A DNA stretch of 54,976 nucleotides from a virus. The position numbers and the translations under genes were made by a program. A model generated the notes under the pieces. The model worked only from the letters and a program-made list of their open reading frames with translations. It searched no databases and had not been told where the DNA came from. This document shows positions 114-54,976 of the stretch, one piece after another (positions within the stretch are counted from its first letter, which is position 1; the number at the start of each line of letters is the position of its first letter). Location: positions 1 through 54,976 of IMG/VR virus record IMGVR_UViG_3300012117_000001. One strand, 5' to 3'.

Positions 114-128
114 AAAGAGTTAATAAAG

Positions 129-6275: not shown

Positions 6276-6636
6276 TAACTGTCTCGTCGATCATGTATAA
6301 AACCATATTGTTATAGTCTTTCACCTCGCTACCCAGAGTGTTTACATCAAATGCATACAGGTTCTTTAATGGTGATTGTAGATATTGCTCCAGGATATTA
6401 ATACCTGATTTAATTGGGATGCCATAAATTGCTTTAGTCCCCCTATCCCATTTCATATCAAAGAAATAGCACTGTAGAATTTTATTAGCATACACTGGTG
6501 AGATGGTTATCTCTTCACTATTGTACGAGAACTTCACCCCACGAGATGTATTAAATGGGATTGTTTTTAAAATACCTAACTGAAGTTTACCCCCTAGTAG
6601 AATGTTCGTAAGGGTGTTTAAACTATCTGAATTCAT
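6268..6636 (-). CDS. Hypothetical baseplate-block protein
   Basis: 122 aa, overlapping both neighbours by 8 and 4 nt. No recognisable motif. Confidence 0.5.
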   Translation of the reverse strand: MNSDSLNTLTNILLGGKLQLGILKTIPFNTSRGVKFSYNSEEITISPVYANKILQCYFFDMKWDRGTKAIYGIPIKSGINILEQYLQSPLKNLYAFDVNTLGSEVKDYNNMVLYMIDETVNG

Positions 6637-20306: not shown

Positions 20307-21644
20307 TTAATTAGTTTTATTTTCAGTGGTCTTTTGTGGCGGGTTTGGTGGAGCAGTTCCAAGATCTGTGTCCCCAAAGACTTTCTCATGCTTGAGCACA
20401 GTGTTAGCTACTTGTGCTGAGATAATACCTTGCTGGACTAGTTCTGATACGGAATCAGAGAGATCTTTGGCTCGTTTAGCTCTATCAACGTTTGACTCAG
20501 GAAAGACTGAATTCCATTCATAAGTCCATGCTGGCAAGCCGTAGTGCGCTTGCAGAATTCGATCAATAATCTTCAGACGTTTATCGAAGACAGACTTCTG
20601 TAAACCCCTTAGTAAATCAATGTAGTTCACCAAGTCAGACTCCCCTGTAGCATTCATACCATCAGGAGAAGCAGAGAGGAACCTTGTAGCAGGGATACCG
20701 ACGGCAGCGGCTACAATCTTCAGATATTCCCATATCAAGTCCTTTACCCCAGATAAGGCAATTGACTTCGTGGAGTAATCTTCGGTTTCATCTAAGAGCA
20801 GTACACCAAATACCGACTTGGCTTGCTTCATCAATCTGAAGCGCTTCATCACAGCTTGTTCACCTTCCGGACTTGTCAGCAGACTTTGCAGACCTTGGAC
20901 AGTAACCACATCAATGGTTGCTTCCTGGCTTAACTGTGCGGCTGATGCAGCTGTAGTGAAGAATTGATCGATGGTCTTCTGAAGTGGAATCAGTACTGAA
21001 TCTGAATACCATTGGTTACGTTGCAACTGGAACAAAGGTAACTCAGTCCCTTCAAACCTGATGAAGCGTGAGTGATGAATACGCTGTGTGCAACCAACTA
21101 ATTGGTAATACTCCGGCAAACCATAATGAGGACTTAATGGGTCAAGAACTAAGGAGCCAGTTGGCACCATTCGAGTCCTGTCCACAATCTGGAAGGACTT
21201 GATGCAACCTGGCTTCAGCCTCTTGAAGTTGAGAGGTGTGCTAAGCGAGCCAGCACCTTTCAAATCCAGCAGCAGGAACGAAGTTCCATACAGTCTCGCC
21301 CATTGATACCCCATACGGAATAACGATGGGATATCAAATTCTGTGTCTGCTTCAATACCTTCTGGAGTACTGATTTTCCTCCATTCGCGGCACATATCTT
21401 GTGGGATAATTTCACAGACTTTCTTGCTAACCCAATCCTCACGGAATCGGTTGATTAATTGCGGCCAGTCCTGATTCGAACCTTCGTAATACCAACGATT
21501 ATAAGTAGACTTATCAGCACCTGTACCAAGACCGGTTACAACATTCTCCAGACCATCAGCGATGCTAACCGGATTTATTTTAGTTTTATCGTTTGTTCCG
21601 GTTACTGCTTTGGCTTTGGCTTTATGTGCTGCCGGTCTTGTCAT
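20307..21644 (-). CDS. Portal protein
   Basis: 445 aa directly downstream of the terminase. Size and order are typical of a portal. Confidence 0.75.
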   Translation of the reverse strand: MTRPAAHKAKAKAVTGTNDKTKINPVSIADGLENVVTGLGTGADKSTYNRWYYEGSNQDWPQLINRFREDWVSKKVCEIIPQDMCREWRKISTPEGIEADTEFDIPSLFRMGYQWARLYGTSFLLLDLKGAGSLSTPLNFKRLKPGCIKSFQIVDRTRMVPTGSLVLDPLSPHYGLPEYYQLVGCTQRIHHSRFIRFEGTELPLFQLQRNQWYSDSVLIPLQKTIDQFFTTAASAAQLSQEATIDVVTVQGLQSLLTSPEGEQAVMKRFRLMKQAKSVFGVLLLDETEDYSTKSIALSGVKDLIWEYLKIVAAAVGIPATRFLSASPDGMNATGESDLVNYIDLLRGLQKSVFDKRLKIIDRILQAHYGLPAWTYEWNSVFPESNVDRAKRAKDLSDSVSELVQQGIISAQVANTVLKHEKVFGDTDLGTAPPNPPQKTTENKTN

Positions 21645-21862
21645 GCAGCCAAACTCGCGGATTTGCGTTTAATCACAGTTCCATTCGTTTTACGGATATA
21701 CATACCATCAGCAGTTTCAACACTTAAATTTGCACGACCTTCAGTTGCCTCGATAGTCGCTACAACCCTGCCGGTATTTACATCAATAATATCCAGACCG
21801 TAATTTTCTTCTGAGCGACCATCAAGTCGCGTTTTGATACTCATTTTTATTATTATACCCAA
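21641..21862 (-). CDS. Small hypothetical protein between terminase and portal
   Basis: 73 codons starting at TTG 21862, or 67 starting at ATG 21844. Neither start has an SD, so the start is uncertain. Confidence 0.35.
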   Translation of the reverse strand: MGIIIKMSIKTRLDGRSEENYGLDIIDVNTGRVVATIEATEGRANLSVETADGMYIRKTNGTVIKRKSASLAA

Positions 21863-23856
21863 GAAAGATAATTTGCGGAGAGCCCAGAGAATTCAATAGC
21901 AACAGCATCGGAGATATTATCGCAAACATCATCATGCCCTGTACCACTCCCTTGTGAAGTCATTGCTAAGACTTCTCGTTTTATATGCCCAATATGTTCG
22001 TGACCAGCGGGAAATTTAATCTTACTTTGCGCGAAATATGTGAGCGTGTTTAGGAATCTAGATATTTTATCGCCACCAGATCTATCTCTGGGGACTGGTA
22101 AACACCTTATATTCCCATCTCTTACAAATTGTTGATTTAAGAATTGCCCAGATGATTTGTCCTCCATATATAAAGCACGAGGTAATAACAGCGGGAATCT
22201 TACATCCAATTTGTTGCACTTTGCCCAGAAACCTAAAACACATTTCTTAAGCTCTGGGGTTTCATACTTACCAATTACACCATCCAACATAATCAATTCT
22301 TTATCTTTGGTAACACCCCAATAAATTAGTACTGAATAGTCAGAATAAGTTTTAACTGTGGAAGCTGTATCAGCAGTAATAAATGTCTTTGTAATGGTGG
22401 AGTAATCAAAGGTGTCTTTATCATATTCACACCACCATTCATTGCTAACCAAGCCATGCCCTTGCGCTGTCGGGTCACCCATATACTGCGAGTTGAACGT
22501 ATACGGCGTCTTAGCTTGCATCTCTTTGAGGGTTTCATAACTTTTACGCCCCGGCCATAGTGCCGATTCGTTCTCACGACCTAGGTCATACAAATAAGGA
22601 ATTGCATTTGTATAAGCTTGCCGACTTATTAGGGTATTATACCAATCTTCATTACCGGTATTTTTATCAACCAAGGCGGGGATATTCAGATAATGATAGT
22701 TATCTGCGCTACCACCTCGAAGTAAGAATCCAACAAGATCTTCATCATGTACACGCTGCATGATAATGACTATGGGTGTACGGGAACACTTGATTAGCTT
22801 GCCATCTTTGTCATTTATGTAACCATCATTAGCAAGTCGGGACATAAATGTATTGTCATATCGGTCGTTAATTTCCGCACGTATGGTATTGGAGTAAGCA
22901 TCTTTTGGCTTAATCACGTCATCAACACAGAAAATACCTGAGTAGCGTTCTGTTAGGCTCCCTGCACCCTTCCCAGTCATTTTGCCACCAGTTGGCACAG
23001 CATGTAATACACCTTGCTTCGTCGTCCCCCAACGTTCCAAAGAACGTTTGTTAGGGTCAATTCTCACTTTAGAGAATATCTTTTGGAATAACGGGTCTGT
23101 CATTATTGTTCGTATATAGCCCGAAGATTCTTGTACAACGTCGTCAGCATAAGAGGTAATGATGTTCTGCGCAGATGGATTATGGCAGAAAGAGAATAAT
23201 GGGAGGAAGATCGATATAATTTGTGTTTTGGAATGCCTTGGAGGTATCGTTACAATACCTCGGTCAATTTCACCATCAACAATCTTTTGGCAAAATTCAA
23301 ATACAACAGCATGAAAATCCTGCTCTTGGAATTTGTAATTCATCTGAATTTCAAAACACCATAGAGAGAATCTTCTAAAATCTTTTATTAATATATCATG
23401 TACAGCGTCAGCAACCGCTTTTGATATCGTGCTGGGGTCAATGTTTAATGGGTCGTTCAAAACACTATCAATTAAACCTATATGAACTTCTTCAGAAGCC
23501 GAAGATTCAATTGCTTGTCCTGCAATACGGTCAGACTTACCAGCTTTAATTATTTTTTCAATTTCAGTTGCAAACGGTGTTGAATCTTTCGTGTCACCAT
23601 TCGCCAACCTTTCGAGCTGAGCTTCCTTAAGGGATTTTAAAACTGCATCCCCTGAAAGTCCCATACCTTCTATTTCATCTTGAAGGAGGTTCGAATACTC
23701 CCCAAGAATACCAGGGTTCTGTGCTAGATAACGCCTGATACTGGGGAGAGAGTGCGCACAGTCGCGCCATTTACGAGTGATGTTATAGAGGTTGCCATAA
23801 TACTTTAGTAATTGCGTAGCAAGGTCATTATTGTAACCTTCTCCGAAATCATCCAT
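21853..23856 (-). CDS. terL: Terminase large subunit
   Basis: 667 aa. It has a Walker A-like PPRHSKTQ, a Walker B-like IFCVDDV and C-terminal nuclease acidic motifs (ITADTAS, HDDVCD). It is the first large gene of the late operon. Confidence 0.8.
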   Translation of the reverse strand: MDDFGEGYNNDLATQLLKYYGNLYNITRKWRDCAHSLPSIRRYLAQNPGILGEYSNLLQDEIEGMGLSGDAVLKSLKEAQLERLANGDTKDSTPFATEIEKIIKAGKSDRIAGQAIESSASEEVHIGLIDSVLNDPLNIDPSTISKAVADAVHDILIKDFRRFSLWCFEIQMNYKFQEQDFHAVVFEFCQKIVDGEIDRGIVTIPPRHSKTQIISIFLPLFSFCHNPSAQNIITSYADDVVQESSGYIRTIMTDPLFQKIFSKVRIDPNKRSLERWGTTKQGVLHAVPTGGKMTGKGAGSLTERYSGIFCVDDVIKPKDAYSNTIRAEINDRYDNTFMSRLANDGYINDKDGKLIKCSRTPIVIIMQRVHDEDLVGFLLRGGSADNYHYLNIPALVDKNTGNEDWYNTLISRQAYTNAIPYLYDLGRENESALWPGRKSYETLKEMQAKTPYTFNSQYMGDPTAQGHGLVSNEWWCEYDKDTFDYSTITKTFITADTASTVKTYSDYSVLIYWGVTKDKELIMLDGVIGKYETPELKKCVLGFWAKCNKLDVRFPLLLPRALYMEDKSSGQFLNQQFVRDGNIRCLPVPRDRSGGDKISRFLNTLTYFAQSKIKFPAGHEHIGHIKREVLAMTSQGSGTGHDDVCDNISDAVAIEFSGLSANYLSWV

Positions 23857-35416: not shown

Positions 35417-37273
35417 TCAGCCATGACCATGTTTCACACGGCTAATAACTTCGTTTTGTTTGCCAGAAATAAATGGCCGTGCATTCGGAGCACCTAAATA
35501 CCCACACACACGTCTTGTTACTTGTAATGTTCCTGAATGGTTCCCACAACAAGGGCATTCAAATCCATTCTCAGTGGCTATAGTTTCACCTGCGTAATCA
35601 CATTCGCCACAATAATCAACGGGAGTATTAATCCCAAAGTAATGGACATGCTTCGCTGCATAGTTGATTACAAATTCGAGTGTATCAATCTTCCCTTTCA
35701 TGTTTGGTAATTCAACATAGGAGATACATCCGCCGGTGGCGATTTTGGTGAATGGCTTCTCGTAGTCAAATTTTGACGTAGGGCTTACTTGCCTGTTTAC
35801 ATCAAGATGATGGGAGTTGGTGTAGTAACCTTTATCTGTCACTTTATTAACACCGAAAGTAGCTGAATCTAAACGGCAGAAACGGTCACATAAGCTTTCA
35901 CTTGGTGTTGCATACAAGGCATAGCCCAGATGAGTTTCAGCCTTCTTCTCATCAGTACGCTGATGGAGGTATGTGAGTACAGCAATCAGGAATTCGTTAA
36001 TCTCAGGAGTGTTGATATCTGGCTGGCCATCAAAGCCTGGGCGAATATCATCGAACATTGCTATAGCTAGTTCGTGAAGACCAATGTAACCAAGGGAAAC
36101 CGAAGCACGATCTTTAAAGTGCTCAAAGACATACTCATCTGGTTCAAGCCTTAAACCAAATGCACCCTCACAGTAAAGGATAGGCGCGACTTTGGCCTTA
36201 ATACCTTTCAACTTGGATACACGATACTCGAGAGCGTCGAACGCAGTGTCTGTGGTTGCCCGAAGTAACCCCCAGAACACTTCCATGTTCCCTTCTGCCA
36301 ACATACCAACTCGCGGCAGATTGATTGACACAACACCAAGGTTATTCCTGCCATCCACTTCACCACTGCTCGTTGCAGATAAGAATGAACGACAACCCAT
36401 CGGGGCTTTGAAGTCACCTGTTACCTCTACTACACGGTCGTAGCTCAGATAATCGGGGTACATTCGTTTGGCAGTGCATCGCATTGCGAGTTGCTTGATA
36501 TCGTAATTAATATCACCAGCCTGCATATTCACACCTTCTCTAAGGGTGAATACTAATTTAGGGAATACAGCTGTGCGCCGATAACGTCCCAGTCCATCCA
36601 TCCGAACTTTCAAGATTTCCTCTTGGATAAGACGAGATTCCCAATCTGTGCCAAGGCCAAAACCTATAGTGACGAACGGCGTCTGACCGTTAGCTGTGTG
36701 TAACGTATTCAGTTCATACTCTAGTGCCTGAATAGCATCATGGGCTTCTTTACGCACCATCTCTGTAGCCATTACAGATGCACTAGCTTCATCGCCCTTC
36801 AGCCATTTACGGGCAAAAGCGTGATGCTTGTTATAAGATTTGCGAACATACACAGCCATAACCTCATCGAAGCGGTTAAGGCTTTGTCCACCGTATTGGT
36901 GAGAGGCAACTTGAGCTACGATCTGTGCTGTGACAGCCACGGCTGTTGAGATACTTTTTGGTGTCTCGATGTCAGCGTTACCCATCTTGAACCCATTACT
37001 TAGCATCCCCTCCAATTCGATCAAGCAGCAATTCGTCATTGCGAATGCTGTGTAATCTAAATCATGGAAATGGATGTCCCCAGAGATATGGGCAGAAGCT
37101 ACATGCTTAGGCATTTCTTGCAGTTCAAGATATTTACTAACTTCACCAGCAACCATATCCCTTTGAACCGGAATACGTTCACTCGCTTTATTAGCATTAT
37201 TGTGAAGCAGTGTGCTATCTGCACTACTGTCGATAATACCTTTGATATTATCTAATGTGTCAGACAGTTCCAT
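35417..37273 (-). CDS. nrdD: Anaerobic (class III) ribonucleoside-triphosphate reductase
   Basis: 618 aa with the C-terminal glycyl-radical motif RVCGYLG and a zinc site CGEC..CPCC. GGAG lies 5 nt before the ATG. Confidence 0.9.
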   Translation of the reverse strand: MELSDTLDNIKGIIDSSADSTLLHNNANKASERIPVQRDMVAGEVSKYLELQEMPKHVASAHISGDIHFHDLDYTAFAMTNCCLIELEGMLSNGFKMGNADIETPKSISTAVAVTAQIVAQVASHQYGGQSLNRFDEVMAVYVRKSYNKHHAFARKWLKGDEASASVMATEMVRKEAHDAIQALEYELNTLHTANGQTPFVTIGFGLGTDWESRLIQEEILKVRMDGLGRYRRTAVFPKLVFTLREGVNMQAGDINYDIKQLAMRCTAKRMYPDYLSYDRVVEVTGDFKAPMGCRSFLSATSSGEVDGRNNLGVVSINLPRVGMLAEGNMEVFWGLLRATTDTAFDALEYRVSKLKGIKAKVAPILYCEGAFGLRLEPDEYVFEHFKDRASVSLGYIGLHELAIAMFDDIRPGFDGQPDINTPEINEFLIAVLTYLHQRTDEKKAETHLGYALYATPSESLCDRFCRLDSATFGVNKVTDKGYYTNSHHLDVNRQVSPTSKFDYEKPFTKIATGGCISYVELPNMKGKIDTLEFVINYAAKHVHYFGINTPVDYCGECDYAGETIATENGFECPCCGNHSGTLQVTRRVCGYLGAPNARPFISGKQNEVISRVKHGHG

Positions 37274-37416: not shown

Positions 37417-37557
37417 TTACTTACGTTTAGCTAATGATGTTACAAATATTGCCAGCACCACACCAATACAAATACCCTCAAACAAAAGCTTAAGGGTATT
37501 GTGCATAGCGAGAGCAGCTAACAGTGCAATAACTGCGAGAGTTAGCTTTGCTTTCAT
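37417..37557 (-). CDS. 46-aa double-helix membrane peptide coupled to terB-like gene (below ORF cut-off)
   Basis: The ATG shares its A with the terB-like TGA (TGATG). The product MKAKLTLAVIALLAALAMHNTLKLLFEGICIGVVLAIFVTSLAKRK has two hydrophobic segments. Confidence 0.55.
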   Translation of the reverse strand: MKAKLTLAVIALLAALAMHNTLKLLFEGICIGVVLAIFVTSLAKRK

Positions 37558-37997
37558 CAGATGAAATCTTCCAGACGCATACCCAGAATCTGCCCAGCTT
37601 CCTTCAGAGCACGTTCTTCATGCTCATCAATAGTGCCATCACCTGCTAGCGCGATGGAGATCATATTGACGAATACTTCTGCTGAATCTGATTCATTATG
37701 GGCGATATCTTGCAGTTCTTTCTTGGCTTCAAAGCGAAGAACAGGCATACCAACCAGTTCAAATTTCTCACGATAGCGATTCAGATTCTGAGTGATTTCT
37801 GCACCAAAGTGAGCCAATTTATCATTGGTTTTGATGATTGCTTCCAAGCGCGAAATCTCTTTAGAATCGATGTCACCATCAGCTGCTGCAACCCAGATAG
37901 CACCGGCTACAATCGCTTGCATCAATTCACGATTTTCCAGTTTCTTAACAGCTGATTTTAATTCTGCTTTCTTCTTACCGAAGTTAATACCAAACAT
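37557..37997 (-). CDS. terB: TerB-family protein
   Basis: 146 aa with two TerB-type repeats (AAADGDIDSKEISRLEAII; ALAGDGTIDEHEERALKEAGQILG). It is collinear with E. coli TerB. Confidence 0.75.
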   Translation of the reverse strand: MFGINFGKKKAELKSAVKKLENRELMQAIVAGAIWVAAADGDIDSKEISRLEAIIKTNDKLAHFGAEITQNLNRYREKFELVGMPVLRFEAKKELQDIAHNESDSAEVFVNMISIALAGDGTIDEHEERALKEAGQILGMRLEDFI

Positions 37998-45298: not shown

Positions 45299-46207
45299 TT
45301 ATGCTTGCAGCAGTGCTTTAACGATCTCTACAGGAGTACGTTTTAACGACAAATCACTGGCGGTTACAATAGCTTTAGCTTCATCTTTAGTGATTTTACG
45401 CACGCTATGTAGTAGTGTATAAGCACCTTGACCACCGTTAAATTCACTATTGTATCCAATGAAATATGGTTGGTTGCTACGATCATCCCTGTGAAGCATC
45501 ATTGCATAACCTCTTTGGAAACCGTTGGTATCCACTGTTGCAACAAAGAAATCACCAGTTTTATAGCCTGCTAGTTCACATGGAGTAGGAGCGTATACTT
45601 CGAGGTCACTTAGGTTGACATAACCGAGAGTACCAGTGCTGATGACTTTAAAGCGTGGATTATGGGAATGGTCATCATGATCAAGCTTTACAATTTCACC
45701 ATCTTTGATATTTAAACCAGCATCATGTGAGCGTTTCACACGAAATACAGTTTCACTGTTCCAGCCTTTTGCTCCAAATGGTGTGCCAGATGCTTTATCA
45801 ATGTCGTCCTGGGTAGCTGGGCGTACATCAGCAAGCCCTGCAGCAAAAACTCGGCCTTGTGAATCTTCAAAATATGGAATGTGGGATGCATCATCCCGGC
45901 ATAAGGTTACAACTGTACCTGAGCGACTACCTGTCAGGCAGACAAACTTGTCGCCAACTTTGTAACCAAGACGAGTTGCAGGTGTGTTAGGCATTGTTAC
46001 CGGTTGTGGAACGAGCTTAATTTCCTCCAAATTAAGGTACAACTCTTTCCCAGTACGCACATTTCGATATTTACAGCAAAGTGAACCATCGTCGTGGATT
46101 AACTCGCAAATAACACCGTTTTGAAAATCAGTACCATTATTGCAGTCTGCATTGGTAATAATAACATGACAGCCGATAGTGAAACCACGGTCAGATAAAC
46201 GTGACAT
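45299..46207 (-). CDS. Repeat-domain protein, paralogue B (four modules)
   Basis: 302 aa with the same module core (ELIHDDGSLCCKY, VTLCRDDASHIPYF, VKLDHDDHSHNPRF, MMLHRDDRSNQPYF). It shares near-identical DNA blocks with paralogue A. Confidence 0.7.
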   Translation of the reverse strand: MSRLSDRGFTIGCHVIITNADCNNGTDFQNGVICELIHDDGSLCCKYRNVRTGKELYLNLEEIKLVPQPVTMPNTPATRLGYKVGDKFVCLTGSRSGTVVTLCRDDASHIPYFEDSQGRVFAAGLADVRPATQDDIDKASGTPFGAKGWNSETVFRVKRSHDAGLNIKDGEIVKLDHDDHSHNPRFKVISTGTLGYVNLSDLEVYAPTPCELAGYKTGDFFVATVDTNGFQRGYAMMLHRDDRSNQPYFIGYNSEFNGGQGAYTLLHSVRKITKDEAKAIVTASDLSLKRTPVEIVKALLQA

Positions 46208-47181: not shown

Positions 47182-47460
47182 CTAATCTAATTCTTCATCA
47201 CAATACGTACCCCACTCAAGATTTAACTCTTCAACAGTAGATACAAATTTGCGAATTTCTTTACTGATTTGTTTACGAGTCGGTTTGCATTGAAAATAAA
47301 TCTCTTGCCAATAATTATTTTTAGCAAGGCACAAGTAGAATCTCTTTAGTTCTAACCGTTCCCGAACGTTAATGATTTCTTTGATAGCGGACAGAGCTTC
47401 AGCACTGTGATATCCAGTATGCACAGTGAATACTTCATCATCTTGAAATTTATTCTGCAT
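47182..47460 (-). CDS. Small protein, tandem paralogue 2 (CKPTRKQI motif)
   Basis: Start set to ATG 47460, giving 92 aa. It shares the block FQCKPTRKQI with the upstream gene. Confidence 0.55.
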   Translation of the reverse strand: MQNKFQDDEVFTVHTGYHSAEALSAIKEIINVRERLELKRFYLCLAKNNYWQEIYFQCKPTRKQISKEIRKFVSTVEELNLEWGTYCDEELD

Positions 47461-47722
47461 ATCGCCCTTCCCAATATTCATCCCAGCATTCACGGATTTG
47501 TTTACGAGTGGGCTTGCACTGAAAACGGAAGCAACAATCATAGATTGGATTCATACATACAATAGAAACAGTGAATCTATTCTCTGATCTATCTCTTACC
47601 CAAAGACTCTTAGATTTATCATCCCAATTAGCAACAAAATTTGCTGCCTTTTCAATTACCGCTTGATTTGTGAAGTACACATTGATACTTACTTCTTCGT
47701 TATAATTCTTTATGCCCAGCAT
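47450..47722 (-). CDS. Small protein, tandem paralogue 1 (CKPTRKQI motif)
   Basis: 90 aa with GAGGGAG 7 nt before the ATG. Confidence 0.6.
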   Translation of the reverse strand: MLGIKNYNEEVSINVYFTNQAVIEKAANFVANWDDKSKSLWVRDRSENRFTVSIVCMNPIYDCCFRFQCKPTRKQIRECWDEYWEGRYAE

Positions 47723-48225: not shown

Positions 48226-48799
48226 TTCCAATATCTGTGACAACGAATGAAAAGGTTGCTGCAAGTCTACATGCACTACTGACACAGAACTGCGCCAATA
48301 TTTACATGCCAAAATGCAGCAGATTCTCATGCAGAGACTGTGGCTAATTTACATGCACATTTGTAACAGTATTAACATGCGATACTGTTACAGATATACA
48401 TGCGATAATCGTTCACGTATTAACATGCACAATTAGTGAAATATCTGTATCAATTCTAAAATGGTAAACAAAACGATTTATGTAATAATATACCAATTCA
48501 ACGGTGTCTGATTTGCTATCACTTTCCTTCAATTTCGTACATTTTCCAAATCTCCCTCACCTACTGACTGTTCTTGTTATTGCAATAGCTACCAATATTG
48601 TGGAACAAGGGTATCTCACCTTACCACTAGTAGACGCACACTAACTCACAGAACTCCTTGTAAGAATATTGGGAGAATCAGAGACCTACTCCTGCAACAG
48701 TACGACATGCAATTCGCAACAATGCTCGTATCAATCTTGTTATAGATTGAGGACAATGGGTAGCAAACTGACATGCCTATACTGTTACAGATATTGGAA
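48226..48799. repeat. Repeat/operator-like array (ACATGC iterons, palindromes, 13-bp flanking inverted repeat)
   Basis: - ACATGC at 48269, 48304, 48351, 48375, 48398, 48423, 48705 and 48771, plus 47983 and 48135 outside this span.
- An 11-bp inverted repeat, TGTAACAGTAT (48362) / ATACTGTTACA (48382).
- Flanking arms TTCCAATATCTGT (48226) / ACAGATATTGGAA (48787).
- CCAATAT five times. Confidence 0.8.
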
Positions 48800-49120
48800 C
48801 TCAGAGGATTTATTAATTAATAATAAAATCCTCAGTTCCTGATTTGGTCACATGATTAACTCACTGATGCGAAGAGATTAACCACAAGTTAGTTACTATG
48901 TTCACAGCGCTATGAACAGGGAGTTCCAACTTATAGACTTTCTCTCACATCAATGTTCTCCAATCTTGTACAAACGCCTTCGTACATATGCCGGAATACT
49001 CGCGACGACACTCGGAACAAGTCTGGATTGCGTTAGCCAGGACTTATCTCAGTGGTTGGAAATCAGTAATCATGTGACCACTTTCTTTACTGCTTTGGTA
49101 AACATAGACGCTTCAAGATT

Positions 49121-49232
49121 ACACTATGGTTGGTGCCTATCTCGAAAGTCGGATGATTGCCCTTTCTCACTACCAACTAATGGCAATATTGAATTCATAC
49201 TTACAATAGAAACTACACTATGGTTGGTGCCT
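49121..49232. repeat. 18-bp direct repeat in the leaders of the tandem motif copies
   Basis: ACACTATGGTTGGTGCCT occurs at 49121-49138 and again at 49215-49232. Each copy lies just downstream (minus sense) of a CATTAGTTG copy. Confidence 0.85.
49174..49182 (-). promoter_or_regulatory. Candidate phage-RNAP promoter (tandem copy 2)
   Basis: CATTAGTTG-GTAGTGAG lies 70 nt from the copy at 49244 and fires into the ORF-free tract. Confidence 0.5.
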
Positions 49233-49243
49233 GTTTCCATACC

Positions 49244-49252
49244 CAACTAATG
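49244..49252 (-). promoter_or_regulatory. Candidate phage-RNAP promoter (tandem copy 1)
   Basis: CATTAGTTG-GGTATGG, located in the coding desert downstream of the RNAP gene. Confidence 0.5.
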
Positions 49253-49515
49253 CTGAGTGGTCAACAATGCTGAAGATGTCGAACACCACCGTCAACTAGT
49301 GTTAAAGCAGGTTGCAAGTCGTGATGCCATCTCGGGCTAACCCAAGTTGAGTGTTTGCTAGATGGTTAGGTGTGGATGCCCTATCAACAGCGTAGCACCA
49401 AGACTCCGGGCATATGTCGTGTTACTAAGGTTGCCTTATGGTTGAGGTCTACCTATGCAACTGTAATAGAAGCCACCTTGCTCAGATGACTTCGATAGAG
49501 TTACTCAGGTTTATG

Positions 49516-49559
49516 CACAGAAGAAATATGAATGTTCAGAGAAAATCATCTCTTCTGTG
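49516..49559. terminator. Hairpin just past the RNAP stop codon
   Basis: CACAGAAGA (49516-49524) pairs with TCTTCTGTG (49551-49559), with an inner ATGA/TCAT pair. A T-rich run follows only on the plus strand (ATTGTTTGTTCTTG). Confidence 0.4.
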
Positions 49560-49579
49560 ATTGTTTGTTCTTGATGGAA

Positions 49580-51463
49580 TTAAATACCACCAAGTTGTTT
49601 TGCTAAGTGCGTAAGGGGGTTGTTATCGATGAAGATCTCTTTATACGCTTCTGCAATCACATTGTGCAGTTTAGGTGCATCAGCAAGACAAACACGGAAA
49701 CAGTCATGGATGGATGTGTACCCACGTAAGCCAGCTTGTTTAGCCTTCTTGGCAACAGTACGCGCAATCAATGCATCAATACCCTGCACGAAGTGGACAA
49801 CAAAGGTACGTACAAATTCTTCTGCGGATGGCTCCCGAGCTTGTGTCGTCCATGGTGTCTTCTCTTTAACATTACCAAAGTTAACCAATGTGTCAGCACC
49901 AACCCGAATCGAGAATGCATCACAGATGATGATATCTTTCTCGAAGCAAGGCTTCACAACTTTCAAATTATCAATGTGAGTGTATGACAGGTACGCCTTA
50001 CTGGTATCCATCAACTTGTTGCTTACAGCTAATTGTAATGCCTCAATCAGTTTGTTAATGCGTTCACCTAAGGTGATTTTCACTGCGTTTAGGGTCAATT
50101 CAACGAATGCTGCCATATCCTGGGTGCCTAGCCCTGTGCTATCTAATGCACTGATAAAATCTTTGTTAGTTAATAAAGCAGCTTTACCTCCACCGTACTG
50201 AACAGACATGTAAGGACGTTTAGCAAAGTTACGAGTTAGGATTGATTCATCAACCTTCGCTCCCAGTGGGTTTACTTTGAGCAGTTTCTTGATGTTCTTA
50301 AGGCACAACATGTAAGGGTCATCAGATGTGCCAGCAGTTGTGCGAAAACCTGTTGCTTCTACTAGTTCATGTGAGCCGGCAAGTATTGCAAGTATCTGTG
50401 TACCTGAACATTTAGCATCCTCACCATACCCAAGACGGGAATCACATTTGCCTGTAGTTTCAAACTGCAACCAGTCATATGCCATACGAACATATGTCAG
50501 AGGCTTTGATGGAATTGATTTACCATCAATCTCACGCTGTAAGATCTTCTCAATTGCTTCATCAGGTTTGTTTCCTGCAAATGCCAGATATGCTGGACTC
50601 ATCCACTCATCACTACCCGCCACATCCCTTAGTTCAGTAATGAAGATATCGTAAGCATCACTACCTTTATCAACCCAATTTTCAACATTGTGAGAGTAGT
50701 AAGCTCGAGCCATATCCCCAGATTGAGGATTCGGGCCAAAGCAGGCTTCGTGGTACAAGCGACCTCTTGCATCACCTGATTGTTCAGAGAAAAGCTCTTC
50801 CTCATTCATGACTAACTCAGAGCCTTTATGCACATACATCTCAGCATCCAGACGTGGGTACAACTTGGCGTTTATATTCGTCATATTTGAACGCTTCCAT
50901 GACTCAATCACTCCATATACCGCTTGTCCCATGCGCGACTCAACATGGTAAGACGTATCAGATAGGAACTGAGCAGCTTCCTTGAACAGCTTTGATGCTG
51001 GAACTTTATTACCTTTGATGAATGGAACGCGGCGTGTCTCATCTGTGATGCGCTCGGATAATGGAAGAAGTGCATGAGAAGTCTGTGTCAAGTGTACCCA
51101 CTTACTGGTGAGGCTTAACTGGTCTTCATCATTGCTTACCCAACGCATAGATACAGCAATATCAACCATCTCTTCAGGAGTATTGGTGAGATACATAACC
51201 TTCTTATCTCTGTTACGGGTATGAACTAATTCAATAGCCTGTCCCATATACTCAACCATCTGAGCATACCCAACCTTGCATTCAACATCTGGTAAGTAAT
51301 TAAGTGCTGTGTAGATGGCAAATGCAGCAAAGCCTAATTGTTCATTGGCTTGGAAACCACACTCTTTATGATGCAAAGAAACACCAATAGCAGGTAATAC
51401 ACAATCCAGTGCAGCTTTACGAGCAAATGAAATAGCATCAGAATGGGTGAAAGCATTAGACAT
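49580..51463 (-). CDS. T7-family single-subunit RNA polymerase, compact form
   Basis: 627 aa, with GGAG 7 nt before the ATG.
- DARGRLY at aa 231 (T7: DWRGRVY at 421)
- Motif A: YGEDAKCSGTQILA, with D349
- Motif B: FAKRPYMSVQYGG, with K415 and Y423 spaced as T7 K631/Y639
- Motif C: TSIHDCF, with H586 and D587. Confidence 0.85.
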   Translation of the reverse strand: MSNAFTHSDAISFARKAALDCVLPAIGVSLHHKECGFQANEQLGFAAFAIYTALNYLPDVECKVGYAQMVEYMGQAIELVHTRNRDKKVMYLTNTPEEMVDIAVSMRWVSNDEDQLSLTSKWVHLTQTSHALLPLSERITDETRRVPFIKGNKVPASKLFKEAAQFLSDTSYHVESRMGQAVYGVIESWKRSNMTNINAKLYPRLDAEMYVHKGSELVMNEEELFSEQSGDARGRLYHEACFGPNPQSGDMARAYYSHNVENWVDKGSDAYDIFITELRDVAGSDEWMSPAYLAFAGNKPDEAIEKILQREIDGKSIPSKPLTYVRMAYDWLQFETTGKCDSRLGYGEDAKCSGTQILAILAGSHELVEATGFRTTAGTSDDPYMLCLKNIKKLLKVNPLGAKVDESILTRNFAKRPYMSVQYGGGKAALLTNKDFISALDSTGLGTQDMAAFVELTLNAVKITLGERINKLIEALQLAVSNKLMDTSKAYLSYTHIDNLKVVKPCFEKDIIICDAFSIRVGADTLVNFGNVKEKTPWTTQAREPSAEEFVRTFVVHFVQGIDALIARTVAKKAKQAGLRGYTSIHDCFRVCLADAPKLHNVIAEAYKEIFIDNNPLTHLAKQLGGI

Positions 51464-51639
51464 GATAAATCTCCAAGTTATTAGATGTTTTGAGTTAAAT
51501 AGCAGTAGGAAGAATTTAGGTAACGGGTCCTACTTTTCTTCTTACCTTCATTCCGACTCTCACACCTCCTAACCAAAAAATTTTTATAAATGTCACACGC
51601 ATAAGCTTAACCTCAATAAAGATATCCAGTATTCGTAAC

Positions 51640-51648
51640 CAACTAATG
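51640..51648 (-). promoter_or_regulatory. Candidate phage-RNAP promoter upstream of the RNAP gene
   Basis: CATTAGTTG-GTTACG lies 177 nt upstream of ATG 51463. Confidence 0.5.
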
Positions 51649-51924
51649 CTTAAAGGTATTCTTCAAACTGGACGTAATTATTACCTCTTAAGAATTAATA
51701 ATTAAGTTTGTGTAGTGTGTAATTTTATTCACTATAAATAATTGAAGAGATAATTCTATTTTGGCATTAGCAATGGTAGAAATTGACATATATTAAATTA
51801 ATTTTAATTTATAAAATAAAATTATGAAATATTGATCTGGCGCACTTGACACGCTAATTTTTTGAGATAAGATATTTATTATCTAGTGGCTGAAAAATAT
51901 TTAAGCAGTTAGTTAACGGGAACC

Positions 51925-51933
51925 CAACTAATG
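51925..51933 (-). promoter_or_regulatory. Candidate phage-RNAP promoter (distal, after the lysis cassette)
   Basis: CATTAGTTG-GGTTCCC lies 38 nt downstream (minus sense) of the endolysin stop. Confidence 0.45.
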
Positions 51934-51970
51934 TTAAAATTAAATAACAACATTAATAACAAACTGATAA

Positions 51971-52603
51971 CTAAGCTTGTAGGCTACTAGTGTCATCATT
52001 CAATATATAAAATAAATGATTCCCATACCTCTCAACAAATATAAACTCTTTACTTAGTACCCAATGTGGCTTTGACTTTACTCCAGCTGGTGCGTAATAG
52101 GATGTTGCCGGAGTATTCAATCTTCCATGAAATACCACTACATAAAAAGCAACCCAAATACTCCCCTTCAACTCTTTATCATCAATCTTTTTATGAGAAG
52201 ACATCACTGATTTGTAATGAGCAATTAACTTCTTATTATCCGTCCAAGAGAATTGGTGTGGTTGGTAAATGACATTACAAATTTTGGATGGATAATTTTT
52301 GTTATGAACACGATTTATAACGACGCTTGCAACCTTTAGCTTACCTGAGATATCCTCCCCTCTTGATTCCATGTACACATTCCTAAGCATACATTTAAAA
52401 GGAAGCATCCTATTATGTGGTAGTGATAACCTGCCCATTGAGTACATATTTGTTGCGTAGTTAGATAATAGCTTTATGCTTTCATTCTTTATGTAATCAA
52501 ATTGTGGAGAAACTCTGATAGGTATAATAACTTCTCCATGCACTCCAATTACGATAAACAATGAAAGCACAATACCCAGCATTGCCTGTAGTTTGTGCTT
52601 CAT
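51971..52603 (-). CDS. Endolysin, SleB-type cell wall hydrolase with N-terminal membrane/signal anchor
   Basis: 210 aa. The core CMLRNVYMESRGEDISGKLKVASVVINRVHNKNYPSKICNVIYQPHQFSW matches the SleB/Hydrolase_2 pattern. The N-terminal LGIVLSLFIVIGV helix suggests a SAR-type endolysin. Confidence 0.75.
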   Translation of the reverse strand: MKHKLQAMLGIVLSLFIVIGVHGEVIIPIRVSPQFDYIKNESIKLLSNYATNMYSMGRLSLPHNRMLPFKCMLRNVYMESRGEDISGKLKVASVVINRVHNKNYPSKICNVIYQPHQFSWTDNKKLIAHYKSVMSSHKKIDDKELKGSIWVAFYVVVFHGRLNTPATSYYAPAGVKSKPHWVLSKEFIFVERYGNHLFYILNDDTSSLQA

Positions 52604-52616
52604 AATTATTGCCTGA

Positions 52617-52931
52617 TTATTTATTTAAATTTTTACCAACAAAAGTGTCAAAGATATTTGTGATAACTTTCAATAGGTACTTACTACCTACACCGCCAAT
52701 GACCATGCAAAGTAGAATTGCTGAGTCATGGTTAGCTGCATAGACCTTGGTGAAGTATTCTGTGTGAAGAACCGCAAGAGAAAAGACTCCACACAGAGCA
52801 CTGTCAATGATTACAGTCCCGAAATTATCATGATTTAGGATGCCGCGAAGAAATGAGATTACGATCGTAAGAATAATACTTGAACCTTCATTCCCAATAT
52901 ATTGCGCGATGGATGAGATACGATTTAGCAT
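52617..52931 (-). CDS. Holin (lambda S-like)
   Basis: 104 aa with three hydrophobic segments. The blocks FLRGILNHDNFGTVIIDSALCGV and MVIGGVGSKYLLKVITNIF parallel lambda S blocks [23 protein letters not shown] and VFIGYIGTDSIGSLIKRF. Confidence 0.7.
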   Translation of the reverse strand: MLNRISSIAQYIGNEGSSIILTIVISFLRGILNHDNFGTVIIDSALCGVFSLAVLHTEYFTKVYAANHDSAILLCMVIGGVGSKYLLKVITNIFDTFVGKNLNK

Positions 52932-52994: not shown

Positions 52995-53933
52995 TCAATC
53001 CATTAAGTTAACGACGTTTTCTGCCTTAATGTGTGTGTATTTTGCCAACATAGTAATACTTTTGTGGCCTGATATGCATTGTAATTGCAGTGCACTCAGA
53101 CCCTTTTCGGCATATCTTGTTATGCAAGTGTGCCGCAGTGAGTGGAAACATGCGCCAATTACTCCGGCTTTATTACATGCCCTTTCAAATGCTTTAGATA
53201 CACTTTTCGGTTTAACTCCGAATAGGCAAGAAGTGGGAGTACATTTATCACAGAGACCTTTTAAAATTGATTCCGCATTTGTTGAAAGAGGGACGCTTCG
53301 ACTCTCCCCATTCTTAGTGACACCACCACTGAGATGGACTATTTTCTTATCGAAAAATACCATTTTAGGTGTGATTGAAAGAATTTCATTCCTCCGCATT
53401 GCGGTCTCATAGGCTACTATTGCGATGCTTTGCATCTGAGGTGATAGGAATTTCAATATTTTTTCGAATTCAACTTTAGTGAGAACTCTATCTCTTGGCT
53501 TGCTTGCTTTAGGTTTCCTAACATCGGCAGTAACGTCAAAATCAACTAATGTTAATTCTTTCGCCCATCTTAAAAACCGGGATAAGAGTTGAATTTCTAA
53601 TCTTACTGTAGTTGTAGATACCTCCATCAACCTCTTATCTCTATATTCAACAACTCTTAACTTCGTAATGTTTCTTAAATCTTCTTGAAAGAAACGTGAA
53701 AGAGTGTTCAACTTAAACTTGATTGTTTCATAACCTCCACGTTGCACCCCCTTTACTGTCATCACATTAAGTAGATATTTATCCGACAAGGAAGCTAAGT
53801 TATTAATTTTACCGTTCTCATTTATCCATTTTTGGGCATCCTTAAGATTACTGAATGTTTTAGCAAGCTTTAGATCGTTAACTTTAATGCGAGCTTGGTA
53901 ATTCCCAGATGGGAGTATTCTGACATTTCCCAT
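52995..53933 (-). CDS. int: Tyrosine integrase
   Basis: 312 aa with the C-terminal catalytic pattern HSLRHTCITRYAEKG..SGHKSITMLAKYTH (R..HxxR..Y). Confidence 0.85.
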   Translation of the reverse strand: MGNVRILPSGNYQARIKVNDLKLAKTFSNLKDAQKWINENGKINNLASLSDKYLLNVMTVKGVQRGGYETIKFKLNTLSRFFQEDLRNITKLRVVEYRDKRLMEVSTTTVRLEIQLLSRFLRWAKELTLVDFDVTADVRKPKASKPRDRVLTKVEFEKILKFLSPQMQSIAIVAYETAMRRNEILSITPKMVFFDKKIVHLSGGVTKNGESRSVPLSTNAESILKGLCDKCTPTSCLFGVKPKSVSKAFERACNKAGVIGACFHSLRHTCITRYAEKGLSALQLQCISGHKSITMLAKYTHIKAENVVNLMD

Positions 53934-53987
53934 GCATACCCCTTCTAATCTATATTATGAATAAGCCCACTAAATTAGGTGCTCAAT

Positions 53988-54659
53988 ATGCCTACGCTAT
54001 TCCACAGACCTCTAGTACATAAGACGACAATGTTTGAATTTATTCGTGATTCTAAGCCAATAAAAGATATAGAAATCCTTATTGATGCATTACTGCCTTT
54101 CTCCCAGATTGCACATTTAAAATCAAATCAAAGATATGAATTAGCACACAACGGGGAGGATATCTGCTGGCTGATACTTAAAGGTTCGTTGACTGTTAGG
54201 AGGGCCACTGATGACCTAATCATGTGCAGGATGACCCCTCCTGCAATACTCGGGCTTGCATTGATTACATACCCAAGTACGAATCTTTACCTACAGGTTG
54301 ATGACAGGTCAGAGGTAGCAACCCTGCCCATCGAAGTTCTTGAATCGACGCTAGACAAGTATCAATTATGGAAGTCTGTAGCTAGTGTTCAGGCATATGT
54401 AACTCAAGCGCTAGTAATTAGGGAGTCAACGTTAGTAGTTAGGTCTGCTTATGAAATTATCTGCAATCAACTACATTACCTCATGGGGGAACCCATCCAA
54501 CATCGCCGCGCATACACTGTCACCAACTACATCCTTCAACGAACCCATATATCGAGAAGTAGCATAGTTAAGATACTCCGTCAGTTACAGGATGGTGGAT
54601 ACATTGTTATGAAGAACAACAAGTTGGTGTCTATAAATTCCCTCCCAGAAGGTTACTAA
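53988..54659 (+). CDS. Crp/Fnr-like transcription regulator (candidate lysogeny regulator)
   Basis: 223 aa from ATG 53988, with AGGT 7 nt upstream; GTG 53979 is an alternative start. It has an N-terminal beta-roll-like region (ICWLILKGSLTVRR) and a C-terminal HTH (RTHISRSSIVKILRQLQDGGYIV). It is divergent from int. Confidence 0.6.
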   Translation: MPTLFHRPLVHKTTMFEFIRDSKPIKDIEILIDALLPFSQIAHLKSNQRYELAHNGEDICWLILKGSLTVRRATDDLIMCRMTPPAILGLALITYPSTNLYLQVDDRSEVATLPIEVLESTLDKYQLWKSVASVQAYVTQALVIRESTLVVRSAYEIICNQLHYLMGEPIQHRRAYTVTNYILQRTHISRSSIVKILRQLQDGGYIVMKNNKLVSINSLPEGY

Positions 54660-54716: not shown

Positions 54717-54754
54717 GTGACTCCAAGAAACGAACCTATTAAGTCTGGAGTCAC
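54717..54754 (+). terminator. 9-bp stem hairpin downstream of the regulator gene
   Basis: GTGACTCCA (54717-54725) pairs with TGGAGTCAC (54746-54754) around a 20-nt loop. No U tract. Confidence 0.25.
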
Positions 54755-54863
54755 AGAAAGAATGAATAAAGAAAAATGAAGGAGTTATGACGGACATTGG
54801 CGCCTGAAGCATTGGTCATAAAAACAGCACACATAATGATATAGCGCATATTTTCGACTGAAC

Positions 54864-54976
54864 ACATCGTTGTAGCTTATAAATTGGCGAAAATATCTCC
54901 CGTTTTGCCACCTGAATACATTAATTTCAATAACGTGCTTTCAGCCCTAAAGAAAATTTTGGTTATGCCGACATCT
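54864..54976. repeat. Terminal direct repeat, right copy (exact duplicate of 1..113)
   Basis: Identical to positions 1-113. Confidence 0.95.

Follow-up and report, generated by a model that had tools for sequence, protein, structure and literature searches.

A temperate Chaseviridae-type prophage of Rahnella encoding a compact T7-family RNA polymerase, probably inactivated by a nonsense codon

The window, that is, the whole stretch of 54,976 nucleotides analysed here (IMG/VR record IMGVR_UViG_3300012117_000001, positions 1 to 54,976), is, with fairly high confidence, a temperate Chaseviridae-type prophage of Rahnella with its own compact single-subunit RNA polymerase (RNAP) and a proposed promoter circuit, in which this copy of the polymerase gene was probably inactivated by a nonsense mutation. 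The features on which the analysis was based are the following.

1–113, no strand: direct repeat, left copy (attL core), the exact repeat running to 123 bp (1–123)
163–23856, minus strand: packaging, head and contractile-tail module of Chaseviridae type (profiles; collinear with Faunus and PP101)
163–2151, minus strand: tail fibre (profile)
3372–4529, minus strand: baseplate wedge (profile)
13857–15272, minus strand: sheath (profile)
17070–18119, minus strand: major head protein (profile)
20307–21644, minus strand: portal (profile)
21853–23856, minus strand: TerL (profile)
24087–51932, minus strand: span holding nine of the ten copies of CATTAGTTG(-N3-GTGGA) (exact match)
49511–49579, minus strand: severed 3' end of the RNAP gene (22 codons in frame, then the original TAA)
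49580–51463, minus strand: single-subunit RNAP ORF as encoded, 627 aa, with a premature TAA at its end
51464–51970, minus strand: AT-rich gene-free region upstream of the RNAP gene, with two copies of CATTAGTTG (51932 and 51647)
51971–52603, minus strand: endolysin, cell-wall hydrolase (profile match, Hydrolase_2)
52617–52931, minus strand: holin (profile match, Phage_holin_3_1)
52995–53933, minus strand: tyrosine integrase, 312 aa (Pfam Phage_integrase 9e-25, phrog_1 2e-51)
53979–54659, plus strand: winged-helix regulator, IprA/YaiV-like (Pfam HTH_46 5e-21, weak MarR_2)
54864–54976, no strand: direct repeat, right copy (attR core), with 10 bp more outside the window on the ENA contig

The ORF at 49580–51463 is a genuine T7-family single-subunit RNAP with the complete catalytic set of palm and fingers, as had been proposed from the letters alone. 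In profile searches it matched PHROG_414 (5e-59) and, above the gathering cut-off of 22, the phage-type RNAP family Pfam PF00940 RNA_pol (25.9 bits), and the profile of its own family aligned with T7 RNAP over 421 columns (hhalign, 98.3%, E 1.9e-14). Profile–profile alignment paired the DxRGRxY element D231-A-R-G-R-L-Y with T7 D421-W-R-G-R-V-Y, motif A D349 (DAKCSGTQ) with D537, motif B R411/K415/Y423/G424 with R627/K631/Y639/G640, and motif C H586-D587 with H811-D812, so that the aspartates of motifs A and C, a misalignment of which would have spoken against the assignment, fall exactly on their T7 counterparts. These residues are invariant in 39/39 family sequences. The AF2 model (pLDDT 90.2, pTM 0.85) retrieved T7 RNAP as the top PDB match in Foldseek (E 4e-18, TMq ~0.6), followed by mitochondrial RNAPs, and its best structural match was the model of the GJ1 RNAP (TM 0.85). 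Promoter-specific, DNA-dependent RNA synthesis is a candidate activity of the protein, in view of the co-occurrence of a conserved, strand-specific sequence motif with its clade.

In comparison with T7 RNAP (883 aa; PDB 1CEZ, 1QLN, 1MSW, 8DH3), the palm, fingers and thumb core is held in common and a beta-hairpin (residues 526–540) lies at the position of the T7 specificity loop (~742–767), whereas identity is only ~15–20%, and a phmmer search of the protein against PDB gave E 0.33. The compact RNAP is ~230 aa shorter, with a thumb region ~34 residues and a motif A-to-B stretch ~28 residues shorter than in T7, and the N-terminal part accounts for the largest share of the loss: the DxRGRxY element comes after 230 residues, whereas 420 stand before it in T7, and T7 residues 1–317 correspond to only ~160 residues (hhalign). 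This bears out the reduced N-terminal part described by the sequence-only reading. When residues 1–235 were aligned with T7 1–430 by hhalign, no similarity of the N-termini was detected (probability 0.9%), significance beginning only at about residue 157; no N-terminal domain was matched in the Pfam profile search, and the PHROG and Pfam matches begin at residues 218 and 333, respectively. In the AF2 model the N-terminus is a helical bundle with a short beta-hairpin at 109–118, which could be the counterpart of the T7 intercalating hairpin. Among 1.84 billion cluster representatives surveyed, most relatives measure 610–760 aa. The length of 627 aa, read earlier as that of a very compact enzyme, is indeed far below that of T7 RNAP, but it is partly due to a nonsense codon that had been overlooked.

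The polymerase is of the known compact Chaseviridae type (phiEcoM-GJ1 type, 640–650 aa) and an ordinary member of that family. A phage with a contractile tail and a compact single-subunit RNAP, phiEcoM-GJ1, was reportedly described in 2008. Relatives of the RNAP are contained in 112 phage records; among the matches listed, the best reached 44% identity, most were annotated as RNA polymerase, and all but one weak match to a Xanthomonas phage came from Chaseviridae-type myoviruses of ~51–57 kb. A total of 35–36 genes are collinear with Faunus and PP101, and the element fits the Chaseviridae definition (myovirus-type virion genes, a genome of the 52–56-kb class, a DNA polymerase and primase/helicase of its own, a single-subunit RNAP), with matches to sheath, baseplate, portal, TerL and DNA polymerase profiles. 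The RNAPs of the Cleopatravirinae (phiEcoM-GJ1 gp01, 648 aa; ST32, PP101, Y2, Faunus) share the family, the fold and the compact size, aligning with residues 19–627 of the prophage protein, and their genomes share the same architecture. Identities to this subfamily were 42–46% for the RNAP, 62% for TerL, 67% for the portal and 60–62% for the DNA polymerase, against 32–34% for the RNAPs of the Nefertitivirinae, which are longer. Since the RNAP is only ~44% identical to those of the Cleopatravirinae, it was placed in a separate clade, and these identities suggest that the temperate clade may be a sister group of that subfamily.

The integrase, the Crp-like regulator and the sheath and baseplate genes listed by the sequence-only reading are all present, as are tail-fibre genes, the regulator qualifying as Crp-like because it is IprA/YaiV-like. 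The context judged there to be unusual for such a polymerase is not, as the combination of contractile tail and compact single-subunit RNAP defines the Chaseviridae. The unusual feature is the temperate lifestyle, since in the ICTV 2022 profile Chaseviridae are lytic, with terminal repeats of ~3 kb; the promoters of their RNAP are given there as unknown. By contrast with this lytic, integrase-free condition, the present genome is integrated and carries an intact integrase, with the catalytic residues R181, H264xxR267, H290 and Y299; no homologue of this integrase was found in Faunus, PP101, phiA050, VPs20 or BUCT696. In the Cleopatravirinae, moreover, the RNAP gene lies at the left genome end within the ~3-kb terminal repeat, whereas in the prophage it lies behind integrase, holin and endolysin.

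The element is integrated in a Rahnella chromosome between 123-bp direct repeats, and the intact integrase, these repeats and the Rahnella DNA beyond them uphold the earlier description of the phage as temperate. About 54.7 kb lie between the repeats. On the ENA contig, which is identical to the window, Rahnella genes follow beyond the right repeat; the repeat also marks the start or end of two JGI contigs, one with the right and one with the left host flank. The G+C content was 41.2% for the phage and 52.7% and 51.9% for the flanks. Phage and host share a contig at the right junction alone; the left junction was inferred from another contig, because the phage contig starts exactly at the repeat. 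The integration site is not a tRNA gene, since ARAGORN found neither tRNA nor tmRNA in window or flank, and no known RNA was detected in the window by Rfam at gathering thresholds. The four closest relatives (55–70% identity) share the order integrase–holin–endolysin–RNAP, which is thus found in 5/5 members of the 55–100% clade. Two of these members sit in the chromosomes of isolates, Enterobacter ludwigii (GCA_049316685.1) and Lelliottia, within contigs of 450 kb and 105 kb and adjoining chromosomal genes. A scan of species-representative bacterial genomes returned one distant locus only (Ekhidna MAG, 40% identity), owing to the strict peptide patterns applied, and a scan of IMG/VR returned Faunus only. 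The Aeromonas phage similar to prophages reported in PMC11292799 was considered and set aside, as it belongs to the Peduoviridae and is irrelevant to the Chaseviridae question.

The motif CATTAGTTG occurs in ten exact copies on the gene strand and in none on the other, against 0.31 expected, and eight of the ten lie within gene-free DNA. The 5' ends on the minus strand are at 51932, 51647, 49251, 49181, 47949, 46347, 41559, 24575 and 24095, and the tenth copy, at 53550, is inside the integrase gene. The gene-free region 51464–51970 also contains sigma-70-like hexamers, and both copies of CATTAGTTG in it are devoid of the downstream GTGGA part. The Cleopatravirinae carry the same strand-specific motif, with one copy near the RNAP gene; copies occur at the equivalent site in relatives, and related genomes have conserved it even at an RNAP identity of only 44%, but it is absent from the Nefertitivirinae, with RNAPs ~33% identical. 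CATTAGTTG-N3-GTGGA tracks the compact-RNAP clade and is likely its cognate promoter; the motif could also be the binding site of another factor. The argument that a short promoter fits a reduced N-terminal domain is not established: weaker conservation widens the invariant core of 9 nt to ~25 nt, an extent that resembles the length of the T7 promoter. A promoter consensus for PP101 has been published in the form of a figure, which may or may not equal the CATTAGTTG motif. A full-text literature search for CATTAGTTG retrieved no report of a phage promoter.

A circuit is proposed on this basis. Upon induction, the AT-rich upstream region would drive transcription of the polymerase gene by host RNAP, and the phage enzyme would go on to initiate at CATTAGTTG-N3-GTGGA sites before the early, DNA-metabolism and terminase/structural genes. 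Positive feedback would come from the motif copies in front of the RNAP gene, as proposed for LUZ100, and a repressor, for which the divergent winged-helix protein is a possible candidate, would hold the loop off in the lysogen. In the LUZ100 model, a phage-promoter-like site upstream of the RNAP gene would give positive feedback that is checked by a regulator. We lean, by a modest degree, towards a wider reading, namely an undescribed temperate sister lineage of the Cleopatravirinae in which the lysis–lysogeny switch would gate a self-activating loop of RNAP and CATTAGTTG-N3-GTGGA, this motif being the promoter of the compact-RNAP branch of the Chaseviridae. Such a lineage would infect Enterobacterales (Rahnella, Enterobacter, Lelliottia); its contractile-tailed members would establish lysogeny by means of a tyrosine integrase and yet depend on a compact single-subunit RNAP of their own.

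The RNAP ORF ends at an in-frame TAA (49580–49582). Beyond it the reading frame stays open for 22 codons, FHQEQTITEEMIFSEHSYFFCA, up to a second TAA at ~49511–49513, the original end of the gene. This translation matches the conserved C-terminus of the relatives, including that of the Cleopatravirinae, and since it does so in all of them, the ancestral gene had ~650 codons. The tail is kept in 38/38 relatives, among which its T, E and F are invariant or near-invariant and the position of the premature stop is occupied by Gln or Asn; 14/22 residues are identical to the E. ludwigii homologue (655 aa), overall RNAP identity to relative P0004 being 64%. In the model of a full-length relative the tail is ordered (pLDDT 93–95), and the ancestral C-terminus (...TEEMIFSEHSYFFCA) is similar to the T7 foot (...RDILESDFAFA). 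The gene is a member of the family by descent, but the foot is missing from the encoded product of 627 aa, which stops 22 residues short. A longer real ORF had been named in advance as a result that would undermine the claimed compactness; the ancestral gene is indeed longer, but by only 23 residues, so that the compactness relative to T7 stands.

Recoding of TAA was rejected, because this codon is the stop of 27/37 conserved genes; its commonest context is TAAT, and in enterobacteria a TAA with T as the next base terminates strongly. No tRNA, tmRNA or suppressor gene was found by ARAGORN in window or flank. The other large genes of the prophage are full length in comparison with their homologues, and searches for tandem and inverted repeats in the gene-free region after the RNAP gene gave nothing notable. 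In T7 RNAP the foot extends to the active site, and processive, Mg-dependent catalysis requires it (PMC10110463, its references 32–34). As the nonsense codon removes a conserved and structured tail, the encoded polymerase is probably inactive, an effect extrapolated from T7 RNAP, which is only ~15–20% identical. The otherwise intact prophage would then probably be locked, and the inactivation of the polymerase would be recent. It would represent a natural case of a single base change disabling a prophage that depends on a single enzyme.

The stop is present in three assemblies (ENA, JGI-derived and Logan), which show 100% identity to each other and probably go back to a single sample and sequencing run. 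Their agreement accordingly leaves some room, albeit little, for a sequencing or consensus error or a rare allele, with a real gene that is intact and has 650 codons, since no second independent sample supports the stop. Nevertheless, the same base was obtained by three different assemblers, the change from CAA to TAA is a substitution and not a homopolymer indel, the more typical error, and prophage decay commonly sets in with nonsense mutations in lytic genes. Hardly more probable, and likewise judged unlikely, is that the stop is real while the polymerase is functional and the prophage inducible, either because the tail is dispensable or because readthrough of TAA is sufficient. A small amount of enzyme might suffice given positive feedback, the upstream motif copies could amplify a weak signal, the remaining prophage seems intact, and the codons behind the stop show the same degree of conservation as the remainder of the protein (14/22 against 64%). 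A recent mutation, however, explains a conserved tail equally well, and the retention of the tail in every relative, its near-invariant T, E and F and its order in the model stand against dispensability, as does against readthrough the standard use of TAA as a stop together with the lack of a tRNA or suppressor gene.

A very small probability was assigned to a lytic phage that is not integrated, whose direct repeats would be a terminal repeat or an artefact, with Rahnella DNA joined as a chimera and the integrase serving another role, for example the resolution of replication dimers. The contig does begin at the repeat, with the left junction elsewhere, and a lytic lifestyle and terminal repeats are known from the classified Chaseviridae. 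Those repeats, however, measure ~3 kb and include the RNAP gene, instead of 123 bp beside tail-fibre genes; two JGI contigs join the repeat to host-like DNA of 52% G+C, on either side; and homologous integrase–holin–endolysin–RNAP elements lie within the 450-kb and 105-kb contigs of isolates.

Chaseviridae have been treated as strictly lytic and proposed for the biocontrol of E. coli, Erwinia, Pectobacterium and Aeromonas; with integrase-bearing prophage relatives in Enterobacterales, family membership is no proof of lifestyle, a lesson drawn recently for T7-like podoviruses as well. CATTAGTTG-N3-GTGGA offers a testable candidate promoter for the Chaseviridae RNAP and, together with an enzyme of ~650 aa, a potential small orthogonal RNAP/promoter pair for synthetic biology.

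T7 itself, a lytic podovirus, has another promoter. LUZ100, Pasto, HTVC019P and Bp-AMP1 combine their own single-subunit RNAP with a tyrosine integrase and a winged-helix regulator, as the prophage does; of the traits of the LUZ100 type, the integrase and a winged-helix protein are present here, but the two upstream copies of the core motif lack GTGGA. These temperate Autographiviridae are podoviruses with an RNAP of T7 size and the T7 gene order, whereas the prophage is of the contractile-tailed Chaseviridae type. The best match of the integrase in the phage database was to Bp-AMP1, at ~31% identity, a similarity too low to claim a shared integrase cassette. The regulator of the temperate Autographiviridae is MarR-like and co-transcribed with the integrase, while that of the prophage is IprA/HTH_46-like and divergent from it, being the sole gene on the plus strand. 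This protein, a candidate lysogeny regulator, matched NCBIfam IprA at 3e-20, below the cut-off, and its sequence matched none of the solved structures searched; the integrase–regulator intergenic region and the region upstream of the RNAP gene yielded no palindromes or shared 9- to 10-mers. An inserted module made up of the att site, the winged-helix regulator and the integrase separates the tail-fibre genes from the lysis cassette.

The open reading frame 49580..51463 (minus strand, 627 aa) was securely identified as a T7-family single-subunit RNA polymerase (RNAP). It matched PHROG_414 (phage RNA polymerase) over residues 218-625 (E 5e-59) and scored 25.9 bits with Pfam RNA_pol (PF00940), a little over the curated cut-off of 22. 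In a sequence search against solved structures the sole match was T7 RNAP at a non-significant E value of 0.33, and the protein is thus highly divergent from that of T7. In hhalign, a 39-member family profile aligned with T7 RNAP (98.3% probability, E 1.9e-14, 421 columns), placing residues 162-623 on T7 residues 318-848. All the T7 landmarks named in the sequence-only reading were recovered in this register and were invariant in the family alignment: D231-ARGRLY with T7 D421-WRGRVY, motif A D349 with D537, motif B R411/K415/Y423/G424 with R627/K631/Y639/G640, and motif C H586-D587 with H811-D812. A confident AlphaFold2 model built on the same 39-member alignment (pLDDT 90.2, pTM 0.85) had T7 RNAP structures as best PDB matches (E 4e-18, query TM ~0.6); the mitochondrial RNAPs of yeast and human came next.

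When 50,697 phage records were searched in translation, 112 contained an RNAP relative, the best at 44% identity. The matches listed were ~51-57-kb Chaseviridae-type myovirus genomes, except one weak Xanthomonas phage match; they included Erwinia phages Faunus and Y2, Pectobacterium phages PM1 and PP101, Escherichia phages ST32 and Mangalitsa and Aeromonas phage phiA050, among others, and the majority were annotated as RNA polymerase. Faunus and PP101 are classified in the family Chaseviridae, subfamily Cleopatravirinae, and share with the window 35-36 collinear genes (24-68% amino-acid identity), including primase/helicase, DNA polymerase, TerL, portal, major head protein, sheath, tube-like protein and baseplate. 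Profile matches in the window comprised the sheath (4e-84), baseplate wedge, portal and terminase. The best predicted viral structure match was the phiEcoM-GJ1 RNA polymerase (648 aa, TM 0.85/0.83, 41% identity). The contractile tail together with a compact RNAP, a context considered unusual from the sequence alone, is the defining and long-known trait of the Chaseviridae (ICTV profile) and no anomaly.

Compact RNAPs are present in PP101 (641 aa), ST32 (646 aa) and GJ1 (648 aa). Among 1.84 billion cluster representatives, 162 proteins matched with E ≤ 1e-3 and 43 with E ≤ 1e-30, and the full-length ones were mostly 610-760 aa long. Compactness is typical of the whole RNAP branch. Nefertitivirinae RNAPs are longer (about 718-889 aa as annotated). 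The protein studied here is a nonsense-truncated member of this known family, and the genuinely different feature of its clade is the temperate lifestyle. One contig of an Ekhidna sp. MAG (JABSPG010000007.1), encoding an RNAP 40% identical and a primase/helicase 48% identical, was binned with a Bacteroidota genome, and the family may therefore extend beyond the Gammaproteobacteria, the host range given by ICTV.

The family consensus runs ~28 residues past the end of the 627-aa protein. The terminator is an in-frame TAA (49580-49582), after which the frame goes on as FHQEQTITEEMIFSEHSYFFCA to a second TAA; relatives end in ...LGGI-Q/N-FHAEKVLTEELIYSEHSYFFTA, and the Enterobacter ludwigii homologue has CAG (Gln) at the position of the TAA. 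This C-terminal tail was kept in 38 of the 38 relatives examined, with an invariant Phe and one Thr and one Glu conserved in >90%, and was ordered when the full-length E. ludwigii RNAP was modelled (pLDDT 93-95 at residues 631-650). It resembles the T7 RNAP C-terminus (...RDILESDFAFA), the "foot", which sits beside Mg-binding residues and, according to a passage of PMC10110463 (its references 32-34), is required for processivity and efficient Mg-dependent catalysis.

Recoding or suppression of the TAA is unlikely, because this codon is the usual stop of the phage (27 of 37 conserved genes, commonest context TAAT) and a tRNA gene search of the window found none. The codons after the stop are conserved like the remaining protein (14 of 22 identical to the E. 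ludwigii homologue), and other large genes of the window are full length against their homologues. The stop was seen in three assemblies, 100% identical and probably all from one sample. We conclude that the ancestral gene had ~650 codons and was truncated by a recent nonsense mutation; the truncated product is probably inactive, to judge by the T7 foot. The compactness claimed for the protein thus holds relative to T7, but its length of 627 aa is partly a lesion, and the alternative of a longer real frame proved partly correct.

Of the ~230 residues by which the protein is shorter than T7 RNAP, most are missing from the N-terminal part. In the hhalign register, T7 residues 1-317 are matched by ~160 residues, the thumb region (T7 318-421) by 69 against 103, the motif A-B stretch is 28 residues shorter and B-C 9 shorter; after motif C there are 63 residues in the ancestral frame and 40 as truncated, against 71 in T7. 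The N-terminal shortening proposed previously was supported. The N-terminal 155 residues were left uncovered by PHROG_414 and PF00940 and had no significant similarity to the T7 N-terminal domain (hhalign probability 0.9%). They were modelled as a helical bundle (helices 10-32, 41-54, 66-83, 85-90 and 96-105), a short beta-hairpin (109-118) and a helix (120-127). In that non-significant alignment, a lead and not a result, the hairpin falls opposite the T7 intercalating hairpin, and the T7 AT-rich recognition loop region and refolding subdomain (~152-205) fall in gaps. An equivalent of the specificity loop seems to be retained, since a modelled beta-hairpin (526-529 / 538-540, loop GNVKEKTP) aligns with it, K533 and K535 lying opposite T7 R756 and Q758.

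The phage is temperate on several lines of evidence, as had been proposed. Its lysogeny genes are:

52995-53933, tyrosine integrase, 312 aa (Pfam 9e-25; phrog_1 2e-51)
beside the integrase, divergent, winged-helix gene (HTH_46 5e-21)

The integrase has its catalytic residues in place (R181, HxxR 264-267, H290, Y299). The winged-helix protein was IprA/YaiV-like (3e-20, under the NCBIfam cut-off) with a weak MarR_2 match, so that the earlier label "Crp-like" is fair. On the linear Chaseviridae map the RNAP comes first and the lysis genes come last; relative to this map, the attachment site, regulator and integrase form an insert where the tail-fibre genes meet the lysis cassette.

A 65.6-kb ENA contig matches the window base for base over its initial 54,976 bases and then continues with genes for a chemotaxis receptor, an acetyltransferase and type VI secretion; of these flank proteins, one has an identical counterpart in Rahnella and the others group with proteins of that genus. 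The 113-bp terminal identity of the window is a 123-bp direct repeat on this contig. One JGI contig starts at the repeat and runs on into the right host flank; a second ends with the repeat, preceded by 130 bp 98.8% identical to window 54734-54863. The G+C content was 41.2% in the phage and ~52% in both flanks. Such a layout is to be expected of attL and attR when assemblies break at the repeat. Upstream of the 130 bp, the second JGI contig carries a different, P4-type integrase gene (395 aa) in 52% GC DNA; the attachment region (window 1-123 and 54734-54976) is common to another mobile element. Immediately next to the E. ludwigii prophage, too, lies a P4-like integrase/AlpA/D5-primase element (5779-7020 of that locus). 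This may reflect either tandem islands at a single hot spot or a satellite and its helper.

The order integrase-holin-endolysin-RNAP was shared by all four of the closest relatives of the RNAP, which are intact proteins of 655-657 aa with 55-70% identity; one is located within a 450-kb E. ludwigii contig and another, with chromosomal genes alongside, within a 105-kb contig of Lelliottia wanjuensis. The latter (JASSOM010000095.1) is a prophage remnant: two integrases, a holin, the intact 657-aa RNAP and a few early genes run straight into tape-measure and baseplate genes, and the genes for replication, packaging, the head and the sheath have been lost by deletion. No integrase homologue was found in the classified Chaseviridae examined, in agreement with the 4HA13 paper, and the family is described as lytic (ICTV). 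The literature on Chaseviridae prophages yielded a single passing mention, of auto-classified prophages in an Enterobacter cloacae survey silent on RNAP.

The 9-mer CATTAGTTG is a candidate for the cognate phage promoter, and was enriched on the gene strand in every compact-RNAP genome counted:

Copies of CATTAGTTG (gene strand, other strand)
Window: 10, 0
phiA050: 9, 0
Faunus: 6, 2
PP101: 5, 0
E. ludwigii (22 kb): 6, 0
Lelliottia: 2, 0
L017 (locus of a relative): 3, 0
L019 (locus of a relative): 3, 0
Nefertitivirinae VPs20: 0, 1
Nefertitivirinae BUCT696: 0, 1

In the window 0.31 copies were expected, and eight of the ten are in gene-free DNA, roughly 15% of the genome (binomial probability ~1e-5). 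The motif was absent from the Ekhidna contig and from the gene strand of VPs20 and BUCT696, whose RNAPs are ~33% identical. Aligned copies were conserved over ~25 nt, with the consensus tcTtt.aCATTAGTTG..tgTGGa.Aaaa in the temperate clade and Tt.aaCATTAGTTGgA.gTGaAt in the Cleopatravirinae. Copies precede early genes and the terminase/structural operon (24095), and occur just downstream of the RNAP gene and also upstream of it (the upstream copies of the window are at 51932 and 51647, that of PP101 39 nt ahead of the start codon). Promoters of these phages were not identified according to ICTV (2022); eight consensus promoters were hypothesised for PP101, their sequence being in a figure only, and a full-text literature search found no report of CATTAGTTG as a phage promoter. 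This conserved motif is a useful, testable by-product. In ST32 (MF044458), just after the RNAP gene, the published Table 2 lists 'AGGATGGcattagTTG' as Shine-Dalgarno plus TTG start of ORF2; because this is a copy of the motif, ORF2 may be a mis-call.

Mechanistically, the nearest precedent is LUZ100, a temperate T7-like phage. By the same proposed logic, host RNA polymerase would start from the AT-rich region 51690-51900, in which sigma-70-like hexamers are present; the phage RNAP would then amplify itself via the motif, and the remaining genome would be transcribed. In the lysogen a repressor would hold this loop off, the winged-helix protein being a candidate, for which no operator evidence was found.

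Downstream of the RNAP gene lies a 1.25-kb gene-free stretch (48331-49579). Part of it is conserved within the temperate clade (71% with L017 across 533 nt), and a similar gap follows the RNAP gene in all Chaseviridae examined. Its plus-strand ORF 48912-49250 had no family match, and Rfam and repeat searches gave no Rfam match and no notable repeats; it could hold genome ends, packaging signals or non-coding RNA. Other features were the following:

35417-37273, 37557-37997 and 38003-38917, cargo genes for which Faunus and PP101 showed no counterpart: NrdD, an anaerobic ribonucleotide reductase (Pfam 3e-172), a protein of the 'tellurite resistance' family (phrog_632) and a membrane protein of the TerC family
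43863-44921 and 45299-46207, paralogous early genes, both phrog_26483, with a 219-nt segment at 85% identity (44313-44531, 45566-45784)
47260-47296 and 47489-47525, a 37-nt repeat in a second pair, of small DUF7279-like genes
9054-12749, 1231-aa virion protein at the tape-measure position with an internal YqaJ/RecE-like exonuclease domain (aa ~406-655); YqaJ and SLT matches were obtained for its 1194-aa homologue in Lelliottia
163-2151, 662-aa tail-fibre ORF

The C-terminal segment of the latter (aa 500-660) matches tail-fibre assembly (chaperone) families and is either a fusion or an intramolecular chaperone.
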